A stretch of DNA of 32,000 nucleotides from Candidatus Nanopusillus sp. Lineage in GTDB: Archaea > Nanobdellota > Nanobdellia > Nanobdellales > Nanobdellaceae. The notes beneath the pieces were generated by a model that had not been told where the DNA came from, did no database searches, and worked only from the letters and a program-made list of their open reading frames with translations. A program made the position numbers and the translations under genes. This document shows, piece after piece, positions 4,978-31,003 of this stretch (positions are counted from its first letter, which is position 1; the number at the start of each line of letters is the position of its first letter). The stretch covers positions 196 to 32,195 of the forward strand of contig JAWDMD010000002.1 in the NCBI GenBank assembly GCA_046536775.1, read 5' to 3'.

Positions 4978-6420
4978 ATGGATATAAAGCTAAGAAAAAT
5001 ATCTGAAAATATATATGAAATACCCCAAGAAAAAGGAATGAATGTTCCGGTTAGAGTATATGCAAATGACAAGTTAATAGAAAAGATGAAAGAAGATAAA
5101 ACATTAATACAAGGAAAGAATGTCGCTAGTTTGCCAGGAATACAAAAATATTCTATTGTAATGCCAGATGGACATGAAGGTTATGGATTTCCAGTTGGTG
5201 GAGTTGCAGCATTTGATATAAATGAAGGGATAATCTCTCCAGGTGGAATAGGATATGATATAAATTGCGGAGTAAGATTACTAAGAACAAATTTAAAATA
5301 TGAAGAGATAAAACCAAAATTAAAAGAAATTGTGAATGAAATATTTAGAAATGTACCTGCAGGAGTTGGAGAAACCGGAAAAGTTGTTTTATCTGCCGGA
5401 CAATTTAAAGATGCAGTAGAAGAGGGTTTAGAATGGAGTTATAGAGAAGGTTATGCATGGAAAGAGGATTTGGAACATGTAGAATCTTATGGTAGATTAA
5501 AAGATGCTTCAATAGAACATATATCAGATTTATCAATTAGGAGAGGAATGGATCAATTAGGAACTATAGGGTCTGGAAACCATTTCATTGAAATACAAGT
5601 AGTTGATAAAATATTTGATAAGGATATAGCAAACAAATTGGGAATATTTGAAGAAGGACAAATAACAATATTAATTCATACAGGTTCTAGGGGTTTTGGA
5701 CATCAAATTGCATCAGATTATATAGATTTAGGATTGAAAAAATATAGGGAAGAAATAAATAAATTACCAGATAAAGAATTGGTATATTTACCCTTTCAAT
5801 CTGATGACGGAAATAATTATTGGAAATCAATGAGTGCTGCAGCAAATTTTGCATGGAATAATAGACAAATAATAACATATTTTATTAGAAAATCATTCCA
5901 AAAAGTATACAATCATTCAATAGAAGATATTGGATTAAATATTGTATATGATGTTGCTCATAATATTGCAAAAATTGAAGAATATAAAGTTGATGATAAA
6001 AGGAAAAAATTAATTGTTCATAGAAAAGGTGCTACTAGAGCATTTCCATCAGGTTCGGAAGAATTGGTTGAGGATTATAGAAAAATTGGACAACCAGTAT
6101 TAATCCCAGGTTCAATGGGAACAGCATCATATGTATTGATAGGATCTGAAAAATCCATGGAATTATCTTTTGGATCTTCTGCGCATGGTGCTGGAAGAAA
6201 TATGTCGAGAGCTGCTGCGAAAAGGTCATTTAATTATAATGAAATAATTAAAAATTTAGAAGAAAGAGGAATTTATGTAAAATCTACAACAAAAGAAGGT
6301 GTAGTTGAAGAGGTACCTGAAGCCTATAAAAATGTTGATGAAGTTGTAAAAGTAACTGATGAATTGGGTATTTCTAAAATTGTTGTAAGATTAAGACCAA
6401 TAGCAGTTATAAAAGGTTAA
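4978..6420 (+). CDS. rtcB: RtcB RNA 3'-phosphate ligase (tRNA-splicing ligase)
   Basis: Full-length 480-aa protein with characteristic RtcB blocks: PDGHEGYGFPVGGV, GYDINCGVR, GSGNHF, HTGSRGFGHQ, HRKGATRA, PGSMG, SSAHGAGR. Confidence 0.95.
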   Translation: MDIKLRKISENIYEIPQEKGMNVPVRVYANDKLIEKMKEDKTLIQGKNVASLPGIQKYSIVMPDGHEGYGFPVGGVAAFDINEGIISPGGIGYDINCGVRLLRTNLKYEEIKPKLKEIVNEIFRNVPAGVGETGKVVLSAGQFKDAVEEGLEWSYREGYAWKEDLEHVESYGRLKDASIEHISDLSIRRGMDQLGTIGSGNHFIEIQVVDKIFDKDIANKLGIFEEGQITILIHTGSRGFGHQIASDYIDLGLKKYREEINKLPDKELVYLPFQSDDGNNYWKSMSAAANFAWNNRQIITYFIRKSFQKVYNHSIEDIGLNIVYDVAHNIAKIEEYKVDDKRKKLIVHRKGATRAFPSGSEELVEDYRKIGQPVLIPGSMGTASYVLIGSEKSMELSFGSSAHGAGRNMSRAAAKRSFNYNEIIKNLEERGIYVKSTTKEGVVEEVPEAYKNVDEVVKVTDELGISKIVVRLRPIAVIKG

Positions 6421-6450: not shown

Positions 6451-8871
6451 ATGAAAATATTTGTATTAGATTTTGATCATGATAAAGAAAAAATTTATAT
6501 TTATGGAAGAGATGAAAATGGAAAAAAAGTAAGAATAGAATATGATCAACCATTTTATGTATATATAATATTAAAAGATGAAAAATATTTAGAAGAAATA
6601 AAAAATAAATTGAAAGATGAAAAATATATAAAAAATCTTGAAATTCTAAAGAAAAATTTTATAGGAAAAGAATATAATGTAATAAAAGTTTATTTGAATC
6701 AAGATGATTATGATAAAATAAAAAATTTTGCTGATAAGTTAAAAGAAGAAGGAAAAATAATTGGAAAAAAAGAAGGTGATATTAATATAATAAAAAAGTT
6801 TCAAATAGATAATGATATATATCCATTATATACATATGATTTGGAATTAGAATTAATAAAAAAAGGAGATAATATAGATTATTACAAATTAAAGAAAAAT
6901 AATGGAGTTGTTGAAAATAAATATAGGTTGAAGGTTATATCCTTTGATATAGAAACTGCTTCTAATAAATCCATAATATCACCAGAAAAAGCAAATATAT
7001 ATATTATTTCAATATACGATGGAGAAAAATATTATTCAATTTTTTGGGGAGGAGAATCAAATGAAGGGATGAAAGTAAATAACGAATTGGAATTATTAAA
7101 AAAATTTAATGAGATAATTAAAAGTTTAGATCCGGATGTAATTGTTGGATATAATTCAAATAATTTTGATTTATATTTTTTGTATGAAAAAGCAAAAATG
7201 TTGGGATTTAATTTTGATTTTGGATGGGATGGAAAAGGAATAATATATACTAAAAAAAGGGAGGAAGATAAAAAATATAGGATAGTTGGAATACAAAATG
7301 TTGATTTATATGATATTGTCACAACGATATTTGCTCCTCAACTAAATTCTGAAACATATTCTTTAGATGAAATTGCTATGGAAATATTGGGAGAGGGAAA
7401 ATTAGATATGAATTTAAATAAAATGTCAGATATAATTTATAATAAAAAAGATTTTAGTTACTTAATAAAATATAATAGAAAAGATGTAGAATTAACCTAT
7501 AGACTATATAAACATTTTGAAGGAATTTTATTAGAGTTAGCAAGATTGGTTGGAATTACATTATACGAGTTATCTGGAAGTACATATGGAATCCTTGTAG
7601 AAAATTATCTAATAAAAAGGGCAAAAGAATTTAATGAAATAATACCAAATAGACCAGATCCGAATGAGGTAGAGAATAGAAAAAGGAAAACATATACTGG
7701 TGCTATTGTATTAGAACCAAAACCTGGTTTGTATAAAAATATTGCGGTTTTTGATTTTAGATCTTTATATCCATCAATAGTAATTAAATATAATATTTCT
7801 CCCGATACATTGAAATGTGAACATGAAGAATGCATGAAAGATAAGATAATTATTGAAACTAGTTTCGGAAAATCTGAGGTATGGTTCTGTAAAAAGAAAA
7901 AAGGTTTTATATCTGCAGTATTAGAAAAGGTATTTGAAGAAAGAGCAAATTTAAAGAGAGATTTAAAAAGTTTAGATAAAAATTCTGAGGAATATAAAAT
8001 AATTGATAGTAGGCAGACAGCATTAAAATATATAATAAATTCTACATATGGTTATTTGGGTTTTCCAAATTCTAGATGGTACTGTTTAGAATGCGCGGCT
8101 TCAGTAACTGCTTTAGGAAGAAAGCACATATTAGAAGTAAAAGATTTTATTGAAAAAAATGGATATAAAATTTTATATGGAGATACAGATTCTATATTTG
8201 TTATTGTAGACAATAAAGAAAATGCTCTAAATTTATTAAACAAAGTAAATAATATTTTGCCAAAACCATTGGAAATGGAATTTGAAGATTATTATATATC
8301 TGGAATATTTGTGGAAAAAAGATCTGGAGAAGGTGGCGCTAGAAAAAAATATGCATTACTATCTGAAAATAAGAATATTAAATTAAGAGGTTTTGAGGTT
8401 GTTAGAAGAGATTGGTCAGAAATTGCTGGGGAAGTTCAAGAAAAGGTGATTAGGTTAGCTCTAGAAGGAAAAATAAAAGAGATAAATGATTATTTATCAG
8501 AAGTTATTAAAAATATAAGAAATCATGTTTATCCTAAAGAGAAATTTATACTAAAGGAACAATTAAGAAAAGATCCATCAGAATATGAAGTTACGGCTCC
8601 ACATATTATAGCAGCAAAGAAATATAAAGAAAGAGGTTATGATGTTAGAAGAGGGTTCATAGTTGAATATATAATAACAAAAGGTGGTGAAAAAATTTCT
8701 GACAAAGTCAGAATATTAGATGAGGTTAAAGATAATGAATATGATCCAGAATATTATATATATAAACAGGCTTTGCCAGCTATAGAACCGATATTAAAAG
8801 CATTAAATATATCTGTAGAAAATATAGGAAAAGCTCAAAAAGATATATTATCATTTTTTAAAAATGGATGA
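6451..8871 (+). CDS. polB: Family B DNA polymerase, uninterrupted
   Basis: Exo I FDIET, Exo II YNSNNFDL, Exo III YNRKDVELTY. Polymerase motif A DFRSLYPSI, motif B KYIINSTYGY, motif C YGDTDS. It is one continuous 806-aa ORF with no intein-like insertion visible. Confidence 0.95.
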   Translation: MKIFVLDFDHDKEKIYIYGRDENGKKVRIEYDQPFYVYIILKDEKYLEEIKNKLKDEKYIKNLEILKKNFIGKEYNVIKVYLNQDDYDKIKNFADKLKEEGKIIGKKEGDINIIKKFQIDNDIYPLYTYDLELELIKKGDNIDYYKLKKNNGVVENKYRLKVISFDIETASNKSIISPEKANIYIISIYDGEKYYSIFWGGESNEGMKVNNELELLKKFNEIIKSLDPDVIVGYNSNNFDLYFLYEKAKMLGFNFDFGWDGKGIIYTKKREEDKKYRIVGIQNVDLYDIVTTIFAPQLNSETYSLDEIAMEILGEGKLDMNLNKMSDIIYNKKDFSYLIKYNRKDVELTYRLYKHFEGILLELARLVGITLYELSGSTYGILVENYLIKRAKEFNEIIPNRPDPNEVENRKRKTYTGAIVLEPKPGLYKNIAVFDFRSLYPSIVIKYNISPDTLKCEHEECMKDKIIIETSFGKSEVWFCKKKKGFISAVLEKVFEERANLKRDLKSLDKNSEEYKIIDSRQTALKYIINSTYGYLGFPNSRWYCLECAASVTALGRKHILEVKDFIEKNGYKILYGDTDSIFVIVDNKENALNLLNKVNNILPKPLEMEFEDYYISGIFVEKRSGEGGARKKYALLSENKNIKLRGFEVVRRDWSEIAGEVQEKVIRLALEGKIKEINDYLSEVIKNIRNHVYPKEKFILKEQLRKDPSEYEVTAPHIIAAKKYKERGYDVRRGFIVEYIITKGGEKISDKVRILDEVKDNEYDPEYYIYKQALPAIEPILKALNISVENIGKAQKDILSFFKNG

Positions 8872-9216: not shown

Positions 9217-10380
9217 ATGGATTTAAATAAAGATGTAGATCTAATCGATGAGTTTTTCTCGTATGTAAAAAATTTTAATAATAGAATATTCGAAATAAAA
9301 AGAAGTTTGAATAATTTTGTAAATAGAGAAGAATTTAATAATCAATTAAAAGCTTTGAAAGAAGAATTAGAAAATGTAGAAAAAATATTAGATAATTATA
9401 AAGAAATATTAAATGAAGATTTACTCAATAAAGTAAGATATTTAAATGATTTAAAATTAAAAATAGATGTATTAGAAAACAATCAGAAAAACTTTATTGA
9501 TTATTCTACTATAGTAAACATAAAATCAAAAATAAATAAATTAGAACTTGATATAAATTCTCTAAGTAATAAAATAACAAAATATGAAGATGCTATAAAT
9601 AGTATAAAAGAATTAAGTAATAAAATAAAAGATTCGACAGATAGATTAAGTAAAATAGAAGATTCATATACAAATATTAATGATTTTAATGATCTGAAAG
9701 AAAAAGTGGCTAATTTAACGAATTTAGTATCTAAGACAATAGACAATTTATCTAAAGATTTATTACAATATAATAAAATATCTGAAATGATAAATGAGAT
9801 AAAAGAAAAAGATCTATATAATATTAATAGTAAATTGGAAGAGATAGAAAAGAAACATGAAGAAAAATATTCTGAAATTAGTAATAAAATAAGCAATATG
9901 AACTATCTATTGCAATTAACAAATGATGATATTAAAAATATAAAACAATTTAAAACTTATGAAGAATTATATAACAAATATATAAACTTCGAAAATAGAT
10001 TAAATAGCATATATGCATTATTTGAGGAATTAAATAATCTGGTTGTAGATTTAAGATCTAAAGTAAATGAAATGGACAAAATTGAAGAAATTAATGAAAA
10101 ATATAATAAATTGGAAGAAAGTTTAAACAATATTAGGGAAGAAATAAGAAATGTAAAAACAGAATTGTACGATTCTAAAGATATACTAGAATCTGTATTA
10201 TCCGATTATGAAAATTTAATGAATAAAGTAAAGAAAATAGAGAACTTTATTGATTTAGCTAACCTTGAGTATATAATAAATGAAGTAGAAAAAATAAAAA
10301 TAATGGAAAATGATATAGAAAATATAAAGAGATTATTATTATCTAAAAATATAAAAGAAGAAGAGGAATATAAGTACTAA
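9217..10380 (+). CDS. Hypothetical long coiled-coil protein (387 aa)
   Basis: Coiled-coil-like composition nearly throughout (N/K/E/L/I) with no TM segment and no NTPase motifs. It is the longest ORF at this locus; the antisense ORF 9501-9896 mirrors its low complexity. Confidence 0.5.
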   Translation: MDLNKDVDLIDEFFSYVKNFNNRIFEIKRSLNNFVNREEFNNQLKALKEELENVEKILDNYKEILNEDLLNKVRYLNDLKLKIDVLENNQKNFIDYSTIVNIKSKINKLELDINSLSNKITKYEDAINSIKELSNKIKDSTDRLSKIEDSYTNINDFNDLKEKVANLTNLVSKTIDNLSKDLLQYNKISEMINEIKEKDLYNINSKLEEIEKKHEEKYSEISNKISNMNYLLQLTNDDIKNIKQFKTYEELYNKYINFENRLNSIYALFEELNNLVVDLRSKVNEMDKIEEINEKYNKLEESLNNIREEIRNVKTELYDSKDILESVLSDYENLMNKVKKIENFIDLANLEYIINEVEKIKIMENDIENIKRLLLSKNIKEEEEYKY

Positions 10381-10733
10381 TAGACTTTTTTAATTTTATC
10401 TATTATATCTGCAAGCCTACTTATTATATCATATAATTTTATTAGTTTTTCTTTTTCTATATTTTTATGATCTAATCCTTTTTCTATATCTAAATAATCA
10501 AATACTTTATCAGATTTAACAATATATAATTCATCAAAGAAATTTCTTCCTTCCAATTCTTTTAATATTGATATAAATTTTAACGATTCATTAAGATTGT
10601 TTAAATCTATTTCTTTTTTTAATACTAAAGTTATTTTTCCACTCTCCCCCTTTTCTAATTTTTTAATTTTATTATCAAGTTGTAATAATTTCCTTCTTTT
10701 AGCATATTCTGGGGATGGTATTATTAATGGCAT
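10377..10733 (-). CDS. Hypothetical protein (118 aa)
   Basis: ORF with lysine-rich composition typical of this window and no recognised motif. Its stop overlaps the stop of the convergent coiled-coil gene by 4 nt. Confidence 0.4.
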   Translation of the reverse strand: MPLIIPSPEYAKRRKLLQLDNKIKKLEKGESGKITLVLKKEIDLNNLNESLKFISILKELEGRNFFDELYIVKSDKVFDYLDIEKGLDHKNIEKEKLIKLYDIISRLADIIDKIKKVY

Positions 10734-10763
10734 AATAAATATTAATATATGGAAATTTAAAAA

Positions 10764-10813
10764 TCAGCAGTTACTCCTCTCATCATTAATTCAGATTGTG
10801 TCCACGTCATCAT
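10764..10813 (-). ncRNA. C/D box sRNA (2'-O-methylation guide), box-to-box core
   Basis: The minus strand reads 5'-AUGAUGA (C) CGUGGACACAAU (12 nt) CUGA (D') AUUA AUGAUGA (C') GAGGAGUAACUG (12 nt) CUGA (D)-3', followed at once by UUUUU. All four boxes are perfect consensus and both spacers are the canonical archaeal 12 nt. It lies in the divergent intergenic region between 10733 and 10852. The exact 5' and 3' ends are not determined. Confidence 0.85.
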
Positions 10814-10851
10814 AATATTTATTTATAAGAATTGTATTTTTTATTTTTTAT

Positions 10852-11835
10852 ATGAATGAAATGCTTCCTTTATTGGTATTTGATATAATAATATTGGCAT
10901 ATTCTTCATACCAGGATATAAAATATAAATCTGTAGATGATATAATAATATATATTTTATTGATATTTAATGTATTCTATTTTTTATATTTAATTGTCCA
11001 AAATATTTATCCAGGAAATTTTATATTTTCATATTATATTCTCTTATTTTTCACTTTATTATATCTATTTAGGTTGCTGGCCATTGGAGATCTATTTATT
11101 TTCTTTTCAATATTCTTTCTATTATCCTTCTTTTCTCTATATAAGATGTTATTATTTTTATTTTATTTAGTATTATTTGGATTTATATTCCACAATATAG
11201 AGGCTATTAAGGCATATAAAGAAAATAGAAAAAGATATTATATTTTCATTTTTAATATTATCTCAATATTGGTTTCTATATATTTTATCAACCTTTTTGT
11301 TTTATATTTTGATATTTATTATCTATTAATTTCTCTAATTTTCATATATATTCCATATTTTCTATTTAGATATATATCAAAGGATTTAGAGGAAAAATTA
11401 ACGTTTATGAGAAATGTAAATGAATTGGTTGAAGGAGATTGGATAGAAGATGGAATAGAAATTAATAGTATAAAGAAAGAAGATAAAGAAATATTAGTTA
11501 AATATTTCGATATTTATGAAAATGAGAATAAATACGTATTAAAATTTAAGAATAATAATAAATTAATAAATTCTCTTATTATCTTAATAATCTCAGTTTT
11601 ACCATTAATATTTTATTTTTTAAATGAAATTTTCTTTTATTATTCTATGCCATTTATCATAATATTTTATCATATATTTCAAAATAAACTGTTTATTGGA
11701 AGATTTGGTCTTTCAAAAGAAGAAATTAATATATTAAAGAAATTGGGAGAATATAATGATATAAAAGTAAAAGTAAAAGAAGGAGCACCATTTATTCCTC
11801 CAATATTCCTTTCTTTCATATTCTTACTAATATGA
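10852..11835 (+). CDS. A24-family aspartic peptidase (prepilin/prearchaellin peptidase, FlaK/PibD-like)
   Basis: Polytopic membrane protein. The first candidate catalytic Asp is in SSYQDIKYKSVDD near the N-terminus and the second is in LAIGDLFIF (a GxGD-like motif). The C-terminal GAPFIPPIF resembles the conserved PF.P element of A24 peptidases. A soluble insert (about residues 175-235) sits between TM blocks, as in FlaK. Confidence 0.6.
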   Translation: MNEMLPLLVFDIIILAYSSYQDIKYKSVDDIIIYILLIFNVFYFLYLIVQNIYPGNFIFSYYILLFFTLLYLFRLLAIGDLFIFFSIFFLLSFFSLYKMLLFLFYLVLFGFIFHNIEAIKAYKENRKRYYIFIFNIISILVSIYFINLFVLYFDIYYLLISLIFIYIPYFLFRYISKDLEEKLTFMRNVNELVEGDWIEDGIEINSIKKEDKEILVKYFDIYENENKYVLKFKNNNKLINSLIILIISVLPLIFYFLNEIFFYYSMPFIIIFYHIFQNKLFIGRFGLSKEEINILKKLGEYNDIKVKVKEGAPFIPPIFLSFIFLLI

Positions 11836-24576: not shown

Positions 24577-24651
24577 CGCCCCTGTCGTCTAGTCTGGTCT
24601 AGGATATAGGGTTTTCGTCCCTATGACCCGGGTTCAAATCCCGGCGGGGGC
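24577..24651 (+). tRNA. tRNA-Glu (anticodon UUC)
   Basis: Acceptor GCCCCUG/CGGGGGC, anticodon stem UAGGG/CCCUA with loop UUUUCGU, T arm CCGGG-UUCAAAU-CCCGG, discriminator A. No CCA is encoded. Confidence 0.9.
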
Positions 24652-24681
24652 AAAAATTAACATTATTGATTAGCAAATTCC

Positions 24682-24709: not shown

Positions 24710-25303
24710 ATGAAAGGTCAAGGAGGATCTGGTTTTTCAGCAATGGTATTATTTATAGCAGCAGCATTGACAGCAGCAATAGCAGCATTAGTAATCATTG
24801 GAGCAACAACTAGTGCACAAGGACATGCAGCAGCTGCAGCACAACAAACAGTACAAACATCTGGTACAACTGTAGAAGTTGTAAGGGTAGAAGGTATAAA
24901 CGTTAATACAACAGCACAAACAGTACAAGAGTTCTTAGTATATACAAGATTAGCACCAGGATCACAGCCAATATTATTCAATCAAACAGCAGTAATATTC
25001 TATTCTCCAGCTGGTAGAGAAATATTTGCATATGGAGGGGCTGTAGCAAATTCTTCATTAGTAACAGGATATACAGGATATTATTATATTGATCAACATG
25101 ATTCAGTAGATAATTCAGGATTATTATACAATGGAGTATTAGGACCAAATGATTTAGCAGCATTATTAGTATATGCTAATGTATCATTAGCAACATCACA
25201 AACATGGGAGTTCTCTATAATACCACCAAATGGACAACCATATGATTTATCTGGTGTAACACCGGCAGCAATGATATATCCAACAGTAATATTATATGGC
25301 TAA
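24710..25303 (+). CDS. arlB: Archaellin (archaeal flagellin, ArlB/FlaB-like), short form
   Basis: Class III signal MKG|QGGSG followed by the hydrophobic helix FSAMVLFIAAALTAAIAALVIIGATT. Archaellin-like blocks include VEVVRVEG and FLVYTRLAPGSQPILFNQTAVIFYS, and the C-terminus is SIIPPNGQPYDLSGVTPAA...VILYG. It is visibly more GC-rich than its neighbours because of GCA Ala codons. Confidence 0.7.
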   Translation: MKGQGGSGFSAMVLFIAAALTAAIAALVIIGATTSAQGHAAAAAQQTVQTSGTTVEVVRVEGINVNTTAQTVQEFLVYTRLAPGSQPILFNQTAVIFYSPAGREIFAYGGAVANSSLVTGYTGYYYIDQHDSVDNSGLLYNGVLGPNDLAALLVYANVSLATSQTWEFSIIPPNGQPYDLSGVTPAAMIYPTVILYG

Positions 25304-25952: not shown

Positions 25953-27062
25953 ATGTTATGTAAGCATTTTCCAAAGTGTGGCGGTTGTCAAATTCAAAAT
26001 TTATATTATAATGAACAAATAGAATATAAAATAAAGAAATTTATTGATATATTTAAGAGGGAACCAGATGAAGTTATAAAATCACCGAAAATAATTTATT
26101 ATAGAAATAGAATGGATTATGCTGTTGGTCCTAATTATGAAGTGGGATTAAAGGAATATGGAAAATGGTATTCATATGTAAATGTTGAAGAATGTTTTTT
26201 ACAATCTCAAGAATCAAATATAATAAGAAATAAATTTAGAGAATTTATAATAAACAAAAATTTAAAACCATGGGATACAAAAAAATATACAGGTTTTGTA
26301 AGATATATTGTAATAAGAGAAGGAAAACTTACAAATGAGAGAATGATAAACATAATAACTTATAAAACAGATAATTTTGAATATTATAAAAATATATTTT
26401 TAGAATTTTATAGTCAAATTAAAGATCATGTTAATTCATTTTATTGGTCAATAAATGATACAATTTCAGATGTTTCATATGGAAATATAAATTATTTATT
26501 ATTTGGGGAAAAATATATTAAAGAAAAAGCCTTAGATAATTTTTATTATATTTCATCAAATAGTTTTTATCAGCCAAATAGCTATACAGCAGAAATATTA
26601 TTAAAATATGTAAGAGAATTTACAAATCCAAATGAAAAAGATGTAATCTATGATTTATATTCTGGTTCTGGTTTTTATGCAATAGAAATTGGGAAATATT
26701 CTAATTATGTATATGCCGTAGATAATAATAATGGAAATTTTGAAATGTTTAATTTAAATAAAGAGATAAATAATATAAAAAGCGTGAGATTTTTATTATC
26801 TAATGTAGAAAATTTAGAAAAAATAAATGCAGATAAAATAATTATAGATCCGCCAAGGCCAGGAATAAATAAAAAAGTAATAAGAAAAATATTGGAATCT
26901 AATGCAAGGAAAATCATTTATGTTTCTTGTTATCCAGAAACACAAAAGAGAGATATAGATATTTTAATAAATAAAGGAAATTATAAATTGGAAAATATGA
27001 TTTTGGTCGATCAATTTCCACATACATATCATATGGAGACAATTGCTTTATTAAATAAATAA
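25953..27062 (+). CDS. RNA (uracil-5)-methyltransferase, RumA/TrmA family
   Basis: N-terminal Fe-S Cys cluster CKHFPKCGGCQ plus a later Cys. SAM motif I DLYSGSGFYA, motif IV IIDPPRPG, catalytic Cys in YVSCYPET, and the C-terminal DQFPHTYHMETIALL. Confidence 0.85.
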   Translation: MLCKHFPKCGGCQIQNLYYNEQIEYKIKKFIDIFKREPDEVIKSPKIIYYRNRMDYAVGPNYEVGLKEYGKWYSYVNVEECFLQSQESNIIRNKFREFIINKNLKPWDTKKYTGFVRYIVIREGKLTNERMINIITYKTDNFEYYKNIFLEFYSQIKDHVNSFYWSINDTISDVSYGNINYLLFGEKYIKEKALDNFYYISSNSFYQPNSYTAEILLKYVREFTNPNEKDVIYDLYSGSGFYAIEIGKYSNYVYAVDNNNGNFEMFNLNKEINNIKSVRFLLSNVENLEKINADKIIIDPPRPGINKKVIRKILESNARKIIYVSCYPETQKRDIDILINKGNYKLENMILVDQFPHTYHMETIALLNK

Positions 27063-27109: not shown

Positions 27110-27961
27110 ATGGTAAGGGCACAGTTTGGTTTGTCAACATTAATTATATTAATAGCAATAATAGTAACGGCAGCAGTAGCGGCTGGTGTAATAATATATA
27201 CAGCAAGTTCTCTCCAATCAAAAGCACTACAAACAGGTGCACAAGCTGAGCAAAGAATAACAACAGGTATGCAAATTACACAAGTATTTGGATATCAATA
27301 TGATCCATCAAGTGGCCAATTAAATAATTATTTACAGCAAATAACCGCTTTAGGACCGGTTGTATCATTAATGCCAGGTTCTAATCCAATTAATTTTGAA
27401 TATGTAAGTACTTTAATTACAGATAGCAATGGAGATGTATATTCATATGCACCTTCACAATATGAGCCTACAGCAATATATGGTGTACTGCAAGGAGGAA
27501 GCTTTATAATAACAGGATTTATGTTTAATGATCAGGTAAATGTATTAAATGTAACAATAAACAATTCACAAGAATGTTCTGCACTAAATAATCTTACAAA
27601 TCAATATATATACACAAACTTTACATATATAAATGGAACTTTAGTTTCATGTATAATAGGATTAAATTCTTCAATAATTGGATATCCATTGAGTATAAAT
27701 CAAGTATTCCAAATATTGCAATCAATGAATGAAGCCGGAATTCAAAACCCATATGCAGTAATCGGGTTATCTGTGAGTCAGGAAAGTGTATATTTAACAA
27801 CTGGAGAATTATATGAGATAATATATTATCTATCTAATGGATTATCAACAAACGAAAACTATAATATACAAATAACACCAGTAAATGGATATACATCTCA
27901 ATATGGTGGAGCTATACCAGCAGTCTTATCCCAATCAGTAGTTTCTTTGGGAGGAAGTTAA
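27110..27961 (+). CDS. arlB: Archaellin (archaeal flagellin, ArlB/FlaB)
   Basis: MVRA|QFGLSTLIILIAIIVTAAVAAGVIIYTASSLQSKALQTGAQAEQRITTGMQITQVFGY closely follows the canonical archaellin N-terminus (GIGTLIVFIAMVLVAAVAA..LI.T.G.LQQKA..TG.E...QV.SGLQV). The C-terminus is QITPVNGYTSQYGGAIPAVL. Multiple sequons are present (NVT, NNS, NLT, NFT, NGT, NSS). Confidence 0.85.
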   Translation: MVRAQFGLSTLIILIAIIVTAAVAAGVIIYTASSLQSKALQTGAQAEQRITTGMQITQVFGYQYDPSSGQLNNYLQQITALGPVVSLMPGSNPINFEYVSTLITDSNGDVYSYAPSQYEPTAIYGVLQGGSFIITGFMFNDQVNVLNVTINNSQECSALNNLTNQYIYTNFTYINGTLVSCIIGLNSSIIGYPLSINQVFQILQSMNEAGIQNPYAVIGLSVSQESVYLTTGELYEIIYYLSNGLSTNENYNIQITPVNGYTSQYGGAIPAVLSQSVVSLGGS

Positions 27962-27996
27962 AGATTTTAACTTTTTTAATTATCTTATAATTTATT

Positions 27997-28069
27997 GCCG
28001 CCGTAGCTCAGCTGGTAGAGCGGTGGACCTGTAATCCACAGGTCGTGGGTTCAAGCCCCACCGGCGGCA
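27997..28069 (+). tRNA. tRNA, read as Thr (anticodon UGU) with non-canonical C33
   Basis: Clean 73-nt cloverleaf: acceptor GCCGCCG/CGGCGGC, D arm GCUC-AGCUGGUA-GAGC, anticodon stem GUGGA/UCCAC, loop CCUGUAA, T arm GUGGG-UUCAAGC-CCCAC, discriminator A, followed by T5. With a standard 7-nt loop, positions 34-36 are UGU and position 33 is C rather than the near-universal U. Confidence 0.75.
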
Positions 28070-28101
28070 TTTTTATATATTTTTTACAATTTAAGATTTA
28101 G

Positions 28102-28530
28102 ATGAAAAGAGTATTATATAAAGATAAGGTATTTTTATCAGAAGATAAGATTTTATATTTCTATGAAGTTTTATATTTATTAGAAAAAAAAGAAATTGAA
28201 GTATATGATGAGAAAAATAATAAATTAGATATAGATTATTTTCTAGAAGATGAAAAAATTGAGTTATATTATGATGTATATAAGTATTTTAGAGAAAAAA
28301 ATTATTATTTGGGTACGGGATTAAAATTTGGTGGTATATTTAGAATATACGAAGATATCGAAGAACATTCAAAATGGGTTGCTATTCCAATAAATATTAA
28401 TGAAAAAATAGATATATATGATTTTTTAGCAAAAAATAGAGTTGCACATAGTACTAGAAAAAGAATTTTATATTGTGTAAAGGATAATAATAATTATAGG
28501 TTTTTAGAAATAAGATGGAAAAAATTGTAG
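28102..28530 (+). CDS. endA: tRNA-splicing endonuclease, catalytic (alpha) subunit
   Basis: GLKFGGIFRIYEDIEEHSKWVAIPI...RVAHSTRKRILYCV aligns by eye with the EndA catalytic domain (GLKYGADFRLYE...HS.YLV...RVAHSVRKKLL). The Tyr/His/Lys triad is retained. Confidence 0.8.
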   Translation: MKRVLYKDKVFLSEDKILYFYEVLYLLEKKEIEVYDEKNNKLDIDYFLEDEKIELYYDVYKYFREKNYYLGTGLKFGGIFRIYEDIEEHSKWVAIPININEKIDIYDFLAKNRVAHSTRKRILYCVKDNNNYRFLEIRWKKL

Positions 28531-28985
28531 TTAGAGAATTTAATAATAAATTTATTTTAAATAAGGAATTTTATGATAAAATAGGAAGAATTGGGAAAAT
28601 GGATAAAGATCATATTATTTTAGAACCGGAAGAGTCTTTATATTGTATAAAAAAAGGATGGATAAAATTAGAAGGAATAAATAACTTTTTGGATTTTATT
28701 AAAAAATACGAAAATATTCTAAATATGAAGAAATTTTATGTATTCGAAGATTTAAGAAATAAAGGATATTATCTAGATATAGAAAATGACTCAATTATCC
28801 TATATACAGATTATAAAAAAGAAAAGATCTTATACTATGTTTATCCAATATATGAAAATGAATTCTTATATATTAAAGATATTTTAAATTTTATGAATTC
28901 AAAGAATCTAAATAAAATTTTATTGGCAATAATTGATATAGAAAATGATATAGTTTATTATGAAATAAATGAATTGTTTTTATAA
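28515..28985 (+). CDS. tRNA-splicing endonuclease, structural (beta) subunit
   Basis: YVFEDLRNKGYYL and the C-terminal LLAIIDIENDIVYYEI match the EndA fold (LLIAIVDADGDIVYY). The catalytic His and the S.RK element are missing. It overlaps the alpha gene by 16 nt. Confidence 0.6.
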   Translation: MEKIVVREFNNKFILNKEFYDKIGRIGKMDKDHIILEPEESLYCIKKGWIKLEGINNFLDFIKKYENILNMKKFYVFEDLRNKGYYLDIENDSIILYTDYKKEKILYYVYPIYENEFLYIKDILNFMNSKNLNKILLAIIDIENDIVYYEINELFL

Positions 28986-30932: not shown

Positions 30933-31003
30933 GCCTCCGTGGTGTAGTGGCAGCATACGGGACTGTCGATCCCGCGACCCGGGTTCAAATCCCGGCGGGG
31001 GCG
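30933..31003 (+). tRNA. tRNA-Asp (anticodon GUC)
   Basis: Acceptor GCCUCCG/CGGGGGC (one G-U pair), anticodon stem CGGGA/UCCCG with loop CUGUCGA, T arm CCGGG-UUCAAAU-CCCGG, discriminator G, followed by T6. It starts on the base right after the stop codon of the upstream CDS. Confidence 0.88.

Follow-up and report, generated by a model that had tools for sequence, protein, structure and literature searches.

What is encoded by the 50-nt run of box-like words that lies between two divergent genes of Candidatus (Ca.) Nanopusillus sp., on the minus strand at 10764–10813 of the window, the whole 32,000-nt stretch of DNA analyzed here (NCBI GenBank assembly GCA_046536775.1, contig JAWDMD010000002.1, positions 196 to 32,195 of the forward strand)? 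A first-pass annotation of the window had proposed a C/D box small RNA (sRNA) at this place. Our analysis indicated that the element is very probably the gene for a dual-guide archaeal C/D box sRNA of ~55 nt, the Nanopusillaceae orthologue of sR14 of Nanoarchaeum equitans. This reading was supported by the box anatomy, by conservation, by orthology to an expressed N. equitans sRNA, and by N+5 complementarity to the 23S ribosomal RNA (rRNA) of the lineage.

Box anatomy and occurrence of the element

Re-reading of the minus strand from 10813 to 10764 gave AUGAUGA-12 nt-CUGA-AUUA-AUGAUGA-12 nt-CUGA-U5, exactly the layout claimed in the first-pass annotation, and the dimensions given there (12-nt spacers and a 4-nt linker) were all exact. 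The boxes and guides, read directly from the sequence, are as follows.

10764..10813, minus strand: C/D box sRNA core, box C through box D, 50 nt; the mature RNA is probably a few nucleotides longer on each side
10807..10813, minus strand: box C, AUGAUGA
10795..10806, minus strand: D′ guide, CGUGGACACAAU, 12 nt
10791..10794, minus strand: box D′, CUGA
10787..10790, minus strand: D′-C′ linker, AUUA, 4 nt here and 3 nt in some relatives
10780..10786, minus strand: box C′, AUGAUGA
10768..10779, minus strand: D guide, GAGGAGUAACUG, 12 nt
10764..10767, minus strand: box D, CUGA
10759..10763, minus strand: U5 run directly after box D, candidate oligo-T terminator of the sRNA

The traits of the archaeal C/D class are thus present, including the C-D′-C′-D box order, the short linker, the compact size and the ~12-nt spacers, for which a 12-nt rule has been described in archaeal C/D sRNAs (Yang et al. 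2020). No stable self-fold of the sRNA was found (z = 0.72), which suits a guide RNA, since guides must stay single-stranded.

The arrangement was not expected by chance in the 23.5% G+C DNA of the window. The hexamer TGATGA occurs 12 times per strand, but a strict regular expression for the complete C-D′-C′-D arrangement matched only once; the arrangement appeared in none of 2000 dinucleotide-preserving shuffles, and its analytic expectation was ~3e-6 per window. A permissive pattern that allowed the box variants seen in published N. equitans sRNAs, and that recovered 23 of the 25 published C/D sRNAs of that organism, likewise found this element as its single site, with 0.003 matches expected in shuffles. 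The strict and the permissive scan together bore out the uniqueness of the element in the window.

The element had also been described as unlisted, and Rfam at the gathering threshold indeed reported four transfer RNAs (tRNAs) only in the window. Under permissive settings, 24 of the 27 sub-threshold Rfam matches were C/D families, mostly over 10762–10817 on the minus strand (~55 nt). The box order, spacing and length of the archaeal families sR2 (RF01139), sR20 (RF01140), sR11 (RF01150) and snoPyro_CD (RF00095) align with the element end to end. Their guides are unrelated to those of the element, so the scores fell far under gathering (the best, sR2, at 24.1 bits against 42), and the element is a member of no curated C/D family.

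Conservation and purifying selection

Relatives were recognized by the membrane protein encoded divergently from the element, which is 90% identical in Ca. Nanobsidianus stetteri, ~60% in YN1 and in one Nanopusillaceae metagenome-assembled genome, and ~40% in remoter metagenome proteins. These identities placed the source among the Nanopusillaceae, near N. stetteri. The sRNA was found at the same syntenic place in N. stetteri, YN1, GCA_049974095 and one JGI contig (neighbor protein 39% identical), and these relatives kept the locus order of RtcB, PolB, two coiled-coil proteins, a 118-aa open reading frame (ORF; reverse), the membrane protein and Pelota. A metagenome scan with the boxes and the D-guide core fixed added 34 further loci, about two-thirds of them from the same species complex. 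The element in its syntenic place was counted on ~25 additional metagenome contigs.

Selection was assessed on 22 contigs of this species complex, whose lineages are ~90–92% identical to each other. Third codon positions of both neighbor genes varied at 54–61% of sites and showed a nucleotide diversity of 0.17; that of the sRNA was 0.034. All 22 box positions were invariant, and four of the five substituted sRNA positions were guide positions 1 or 12; the D′ guide core was invariant across the population, its variation being confined to these same two positions. The core pairing region of archaeal C/D guides comprises positions 3–11 upstream of box D or D′ (Yang et al. 2020), so that the substitutions fell mostly outside it, in the pattern of constraint expected of a working guide. 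Box C′ was invariant in every orthologue, L005 and L153 included, boxes D′ and D were invariant as well, and box C reads GUGAUGU in L005, the most distant relative.

Conservation of the DNA per se could also reflect promoter or regulatory sequence for the two flanking genes, with the box-like words coincidental and no RNA gene present. The whole 118-bp spacer between these genes is conserved (nucleotide diversity 0.025–0.034) and must hold at least two promoters, as this explanation would predict. It does not account for a full box arrangement that chance would not produce, or for the persistence of that arrangement in L005 and L153 although the flanks have fully diverged. It is further contradicted by the same guides occurring in another genomic context in N. 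equitans, as an abundant RNA, and by spacers matching rRNA, with a uridine at N+5, and changing together with it. We therefore consider it scarcely credible, and the conserved element is better read as an sRNA gene.

Orthology to N. equitans sR14

The sRNA14 of N. equitans reads AUGAAGA-GAAAGCACAAU-CUGA-AUA-GUGAUGA-AAGGAGUAGCUG-CAGA and is represented by 29,900 RNA-seq reads (Randau 2012, Genome Biol 13:R63, Additional file 2). It shares the architecture of the window element, with a box C, a ~12-nt guide, CUGA, a linker of 3–4 nt, a box C′, a 12-nt guide and a box D. Its D guide AAGGAGUAGCUG is identical at 10 of 12 positions to GAGGAGUAACUG of the window and at 11 of 12 to AAGGAGUAGCUA of N. 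stetteri, and the predicted target nucleotide is the same, the U of AAGC[U]ACUCC in the 23S of Nst1 (N. stetteri), RSNP5, L160, L162–L165 and N. equitans. On its D guide and target, the element is the Nanopusillaceae orthologue of sR14. In the D′ guide, only the final six nucleotides, CACAAU, are common to sR14, the window and the Nst1 type, and YN1, L004 and L005 carry CACCCC instead.

Several differences accompany this likeness. The boxes of sR14 are degenerate (AUGAAGA, GUGAUGA and CAGA), whereas all four are consensus in the window element. No target is predicted for the sR14 D′ guide, which forms only ~5 bp with its own A-loop, compared to 8–11 bp in Nanopusillaceae. The genomic context differs as well, sR14 lying between tRNA-Gly and NEQ370 and the window element between the 118-aa ORF and the membrane-protein gene downstream of PolB. 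Relocation of C/D sRNA genes between contexts is known, so the differing neighborhood weighs little against orthology.

The target of sR14 was not predicted by PLEXY in 2012 (Randau 2012). A later compilation lists the sRNA as "23S U2712 / NP" and marks N14 over the N. equitans row GACGGAAAAGCUACUCCGGGGGUAACAG (Dennis et al. 2015, BMC Genomics 16:632). By the Escherichia coli ruler of the same study, alignment position 2712 equals E. coli U2438 and 2826 equals U2552, and among its seven species U2712 is reached only by N. equitans sR14. Two other sRNAs of that study, Iho sR425 and Mka sR16, guide modification of 23S C2715, which lies on the same helix 74 strand 3 nt downstream of U2712. Their target nucleotide is different and their guides are unrelated to the window D guide; their presence shows that this helix 74 strand has been targeted for methylation recurrently among hyperthermophilic archaea.

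An "anti-guide" role, in which one sRNA would pair with another, was considered and dropped. The window D guide, as GGAGUAACUG, is identical, in the sense orientation, to the helix 69 5′ strand and loop of the N. equitans 23S, and it could therefore pair with the D′ guide of N. equitans sR11. The idea was abandoned because the conserved guide form GGAGUAGCU fits helix 74, where Dennis et al. 2015 assign sR14.

Predicted rRNA targets and guide–target co-variation

Pairing was judged on the 23S of Nanopusillaceae relatives of the window clade. Two complete 23S sequences stood among the genome-collection matches listed, at least 120 and mostly from bacteria and other archaea, those of Ca. N. stetteri Nst1 (the genome of the L001 orthologue) and Ca. 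Nanopusillus RSNP5, and it was 23S rather than 16S of the family that the search covered. In each of them AAGCUACUCCGG, on the 3′ strand of helix 74, lies 114 nt from the A-loop sequence GGGGUGUCCACC. The D guide core GGAGUA.CU pairs with AG.UACUCC of 23S (AGCUACUCC) on the 3′ strand of helix 74, with the E. coli U2438 equivalent opposite position 5. In the D′ guide, positions 4–11 counted from box D′ (GUGGACAC) are fully complementary to the A-loop GUGUCCAC, and position 5, an A, faces the equivalent of U2552. The predicted sites and pairings in the relatives are the following.

Predicted methyl sites, Nst1 23S numbering: U2494 (D guide) and U2608 (D′ guide)
Nst1 guides on the 23S of their own genome: D, 9 Watson–Crick bp at positions 2–10; D′, 8 bp at positions 4–11
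YN1 and L004 guide types, same two sites: D, 9 bp plus 2 G·U; D′, 11 bp

A uridine stood opposite position 5 in every guide/site pair, and both sites ranked at the top across the whole 23S. Shuffled guides equaled the run lengths of the matches of 9 bp and longer in just 13–27 of 2000 trials.

The A-loop gave a further line of evidence, as its sequence differs between lineages together with that of the guide.

N. equitans: A-loop GUGUUCAC, sR10 guide GUGAACAC
Nanopusillaceae: A-loop GUGUCCAC, guide GUGGACAC
Divergent lineage: A-loop GUGCCCAC (L165 23S), guide GUGGGCAC (L153-type sRNA)

In N. equitans the same nucleotide as that of the window D′ guide is reached by the D′ guide of sR10, AGUGAACACCCU (23S U2826, E. 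coli U2552). The sR10 core GUGAACAC and the window D′ core GUGGACAC show a single difference, which matches a U-to-C difference in the A-loop. In these sequence comparisons, the A-loop and its guide co-vary between lineages. The sR10 gene is a different gene, since its D guide targets U2880 (E. coli 2606) and not U2438. The guides for the A-loop and for helix 74 are carried by one RNA in Nanopusillaceae but split between sR10 and sR14 in N. equitans.

To our knowledge, the equivalent of E. coli U2552 is a position modified in all domains of life. A passage of PMC7994747, citing Hansen et al. 2002, reports that all archaea and bacteria examined carry an A-loop modification, at U2552 and/or G2553.

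The helix 74 guide extended beyond nanoarchaeal DNA. C/D sRNAs with perfect boxes and the D-guide core GGAGUA(A/G)CU were found in unrelated, G+C-richer archaea on metagenome contigs of 31–55% G+C (L126, L130, L133, L138, L143, L145, L148, L149, L154, L157 and L159). Their D′ guides are quite different (e.g., GACCGUUCCAGU and GGUUAUCCCCGU), and the common D core thus points to a widespread helix 74 U2438 guide that is combined with varying partner guides. For the GGUUAUCCCCGG-type D′ guide of these archaea the best match was CCGGGGGUAACA, directly beside the D target. A P-loop (G2251) reading of the other D′ guides was unconfirmed with the Nst1 23S as a stand-in and was withdrawn.

The nanoarchaeal A-loop itself is unusual. 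Nanopusillaceae have G-UGUCC-A here, N. equitans has UGUUC and the L165 lineage UGCCC. Where the six other archaea of Dennis et al. show a closing C-G pair (E. coli 2551/2557), G and A are present instead, and the otherwise conserved U2555 is a C. In L089 the A-loop lies at 23S 2604–2615 (L089 3835–3846), and the unusual form was seen with L072 and L160–L165 as well. Several "hypothetical proteins" of public collections proved to be spurious ORFs on the sense strand of nanoarchaeal 23S (L089 3699–4007, plus strand; P0044 and P0109–P0114); this protein cluster, an annotation artefact, served as a handle for rRNA variants.

Weak pairing of the guides in the window clade

The window clade consists of the window and five contigs (L135, L140, L141, L156 and L161), each at least 96.8% identical to it, and here the guides pair less well than in the sister lineages. 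By the five-nucleotide rule the first-pass annotation had predicted two full 12-mer targets, AUUGUGUCCACG and CAGUUACUCCUC. Both were absent from every 23S examined and from the 16S and 23S of seven published archaea; the rule itself held for the cores, which pair with 23S and place an A-U pair at position 5 of both guides. The annotation had further asked for an rRNA or tRNA complementarity of at least 9 bp to either guide. The window copy falls narrowly short of this length, with 8 bp for D′ and 8 of 9 for D including a probable A·C, and its orthologues form 9–11 bp at the same sites. The four tRNAs of the window, also considered as targets, gave at most 7 of 10 pairs and are not targets.

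Several observations weigh against the identification of a working dual-guide sRNA in this organism. In the D′ guide, positions 1–3 (AAU) face GGG, leaving 8 bp, as in the whole Nst1/window species complex; the duplex free energy at 37 °C is −14.9 kcal/mol in the window clade compared to −23.1 in YN1, and the run length of 8 bp alone was reached by 205 of 2000 shuffled guides. In the D guide, position 4 (10771) is A in the window clade and G in all other lineages, and all eight Nanopusillaceae 23S variants, none of them assignable to the window clade, carry C opposite this position, at the equivalent of E. coli 2437 and Nst1 2493 (Nst1, RSNP5 and L160–L164 as DNA together with spurious-ORF cluster members, all KATPGV). 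The samples of these variants and of the window clade differ. An A·C mismatch beside the target nucleotide is therefore the likeliest state of the window-clade D guide, with 8 of 9 bp and a predicted free energy of −10.1 kcal/mol, down from −16.7. A C-to-U change in the 23S of the window clade, which would restore 9 bp at −14.4, appears rather unlikely. The divergent A-loop/guide pair joins an L153 sRNA to an L165 23S that are not on one contig or genome. Finally, a motif scan of nanoarchaeal DNA covering a small part of any genome found no fibrillarin, Nop5 or L7Ae; all three are present and abundant in N. equitans (Randau 2012; Seistrup et al. 2016), and their presence in this lineage is presumed from that organism. 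The invariance of the D′ core in the species complex indicates that its 8 bp are evidently kept by selection. Since both window-clade guides are weaker than those of sister lineages, D-guide activity in this organism is the least certain step.

These data bear most directly on the possibility that the element is a real C/D sRNA partly decayed or shifting in function in the window clade, so that the D guide is inactive, only D′ works, or the RNA acts as a chaperone that binds without modification. Such an outcome would be consistent with the G-to-A substitution at 10771, fixed in all six sequences, with the C that faces it in the family 23S and with the weakened D duplex. It would not be without precedent, as non-productive guide–target interactions and chaperone roles have been described (Dennis et al. 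2015), and the absence of a predicted target for the sR14 D′ guide indicates that guide decay happens in this family. However, six independent sequences stably retain the variant and are otherwise intact in this guide, and the duplex may tolerate one A·C apposition. The window-clade 23S could also have U at this position, as do Sulfolobus, Ignicoccus, Pyrobaculum and Thermoproteus, which would restore 9 bp. We regard partial decay as possible but doubtful.

Alternatively, the D guide of the window clade could have been retargeted, to the variable domain II hairpin CUUACUCCUC of 23S near 855 (RSNP5 numbering), to 16S rRNA or to a tRNA. Positions 851–862 of RSNP5 23S (AGCUUACUCCUC) do pair with positions 4–12 of the window D guide over 9 Watson–Crick bp, and two of the three window-specific substitutions improve this pairing. 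This hairpin site is not conserved, its sequence being different in Nst1 and L160, and nothing links RSNP5 to the window clade. Lineages lacking the site have the same guide core, and no full-length target was present in the 16S or 23S of the seven archaea. Together with the poor tRNA matches, these findings made retargeting improbable and left the helix 74 site as the preferred target of the D guide.

Proposed mechanism and significance

By analogy with characterized archaeal C/D ribonucleoproteins (RNPs), boxes C and D would form a kink-turn and boxes C′ and D′ a kink-loop, which would bind L7Ae first, followed by Nop5 and fibrillarin. The two 12-nt spacers would base-pair with 23S rRNA as it is made, and the rRNA nucleotide opposite the fifth guide position, counted upstream from box D or D′, would receive a 2′-O-methyl group from fibrillarin. 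The D guide is predicted to act on the 3′ strand of helix 74 (AAGCUACUCC), placing a methyl group on the E. coli U2438 equivalent, and the D′ guide on the A-loop of helix 92 (GGGGUGUCCACC), placing one on the U2552 equivalent. Both sites lie in the peptidyl-transferase region of domain V, and with 114 nt between them the RNA may hold both together during folding.

We found no description of C/D sRNAs of Nanopusillaceae in the literature searched. The element adds an unannotated RNA gene to the genomes of this family and links it to an experimentally seen sRNA of N. equitans; the guide is kept across the phylum. It also yields two concrete, testable methylation sites at the catalytic center of the ribosome in an organism among those with the smallest known genomes. 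The 8- versus 11-bp D′ pairings, G versus A at D position 4 and the three matched A-loop/guide pairs form a natural series for the minimal pairing of an archaeal C/D RNP at ~80 °C. The result is sound, useful for annotation and unsurprising, and the understanding of C/D guides is unchanged by it. More speculatively, guidance of U2552 and U2438 by one Nanopusillaceae sRNA, with these jobs split in N. equitans and the sR14 D′ guide idle, might reflect a consolidation or reshuffling of guides as the genome shrank; the window clade might be losing helix 74 methylation or co-evolving with an unseen rRNA change, and the RNA might serve mainly as a clamp joining helices 74 and 92 while domain V folds. 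We put these ideas forward tentatively, as possibilities that we would not yet favor.

Neighboring genes and transcription signals

The position of the element relative to its neighbors agreed with the first-pass annotation, with 30 nt separating the end of box D from the start codon (ATG, 10733) of the same-strand 118-aa ORF and a spacer of 118 bp between this ATG and the divergent ATG at 10852. The flanking genes and candidate signals are listed below.

10377..10733, minus strand: 118-aa ORF, downstream neighbor; no Pfam match; 118–121 aa and beside the sRNA in every relative
10852..11835, plus strand: 327-aa polytopic membrane protein, divergent neighbor; weakly similar to type IV prepilin (A24) peptidases
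10756..10763, minus strand: UUUUUAAA, the U5 run (10763–10759) overlapping TTTAAA (10761–10756), as read in the sequence
10822..10828, plus strand: TTTATAA, candidate TATA box of the membrane-protein gene, centered 27 nt upstream of ATG 10852
10836..10852, minus strand: A/T-rich stretch with candidate sRNA TATA elements (TATAAAA 10852–10846; TAAAAAAT 10843–10836), with no precise assignment in 77% A+T DNA

The TTTAAA at 10761–10756 is a candidate TATA box for the 118-aa ORF, ~26 nt before its ATG, and is conserved in orthologues; it matches the box A consensus of N. equitans (Randau 2012). It was located with a sigma-70 and intrinsic-terminator scan, which is otherwise not meaningful for archaea. 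On the other side of the spacer, TTATAAA is conserved at the place of the candidate membrane-protein TATA box in L001, L002 and L004. Both TATA-like elements of the flanking genes fit leaderless mRNAs. For the sRNA promoter, L153 shows a clean TTTAAA that ends 23 nt before box C, as would be expected if transcription began at that box. The three transcription units that the first-pass annotation placed in the spacer are thus plausible from TATA-like elements at the right distances, spacing being the evidence for them, and expression of the sRNA in this organism is presumed by analogy with N. equitans. Co-transcription of the sRNA with the 118-aa ORF by read-through is possible.

This arrangement bears on whether the boxes might act in cis, as an L7Ae-binding kink-turn in the 5′ leader of the 118-aa ORF mRNA that regulates translation, with no free guide produced. 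The element does lie upstream of the ORF at a short distance on the same strand, their association is kept across the family, and a passage of PMC5539422 proposes L7Ae-mediated translational regulation in archaea. The conserved TTTAAA stands at leaderless distance between box D and the ATG and a U5 run follows box D, however, and the N. equitans orthologue, beside tRNA-Gly, accumulates as a discrete small RNA. Nor would a cis-acting kink-turn call for two conserved 12-nt spacers whose sequences match rRNA and change along with it. We consider a cis-acting leader very improbable, and a free guide sRNA remains the preferred product of the locus.

The "peptidase" label given earlier to the divergent neighbor is a weak one, the similarity to Pfam Peptidase_A24 standing at E = 0.0023 and below the curated cut-off. 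Two archaellin-family genes lie in the window (24710–25303 and 27110–27961, both on the plus strand); these would fit a prepilin/pre-archaellin peptidase role for the membrane protein.

Other features of the window

An RtcB ligase gene is located at 4978–6420. A splicing endonuclease of two subunits is suggested by the adjacent overlapping genes at 28102–28530 and 28515–28985 (plus strand), each of which has a match to tRNA intron endonuclease. A tRNA (uracil-5)-methyltransferase family gene lies at 25953–27062 (plus strand), and no C/D sRNA was found beside it; its N. equitans counterpart NEQ053 overlaps a C/D sRNA gene (Randau 2012). The family B DNA polymerase of the window is a single 806-aa ORF (6451–8871, plus strand). 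In N. equitans this polymerase consists of two halves joined by a split intein. The four tRNA genes (2784–2857, 24578–24652, 27996–28070 and 30933–31003) have 59–69% G+C, and the 23S of the relative Nst1 has 58%. Such G+C-rich tRNAs and 23S in a genome of 23.5% G+C are typical of a hyperthermophile with A+T-rich DNA.

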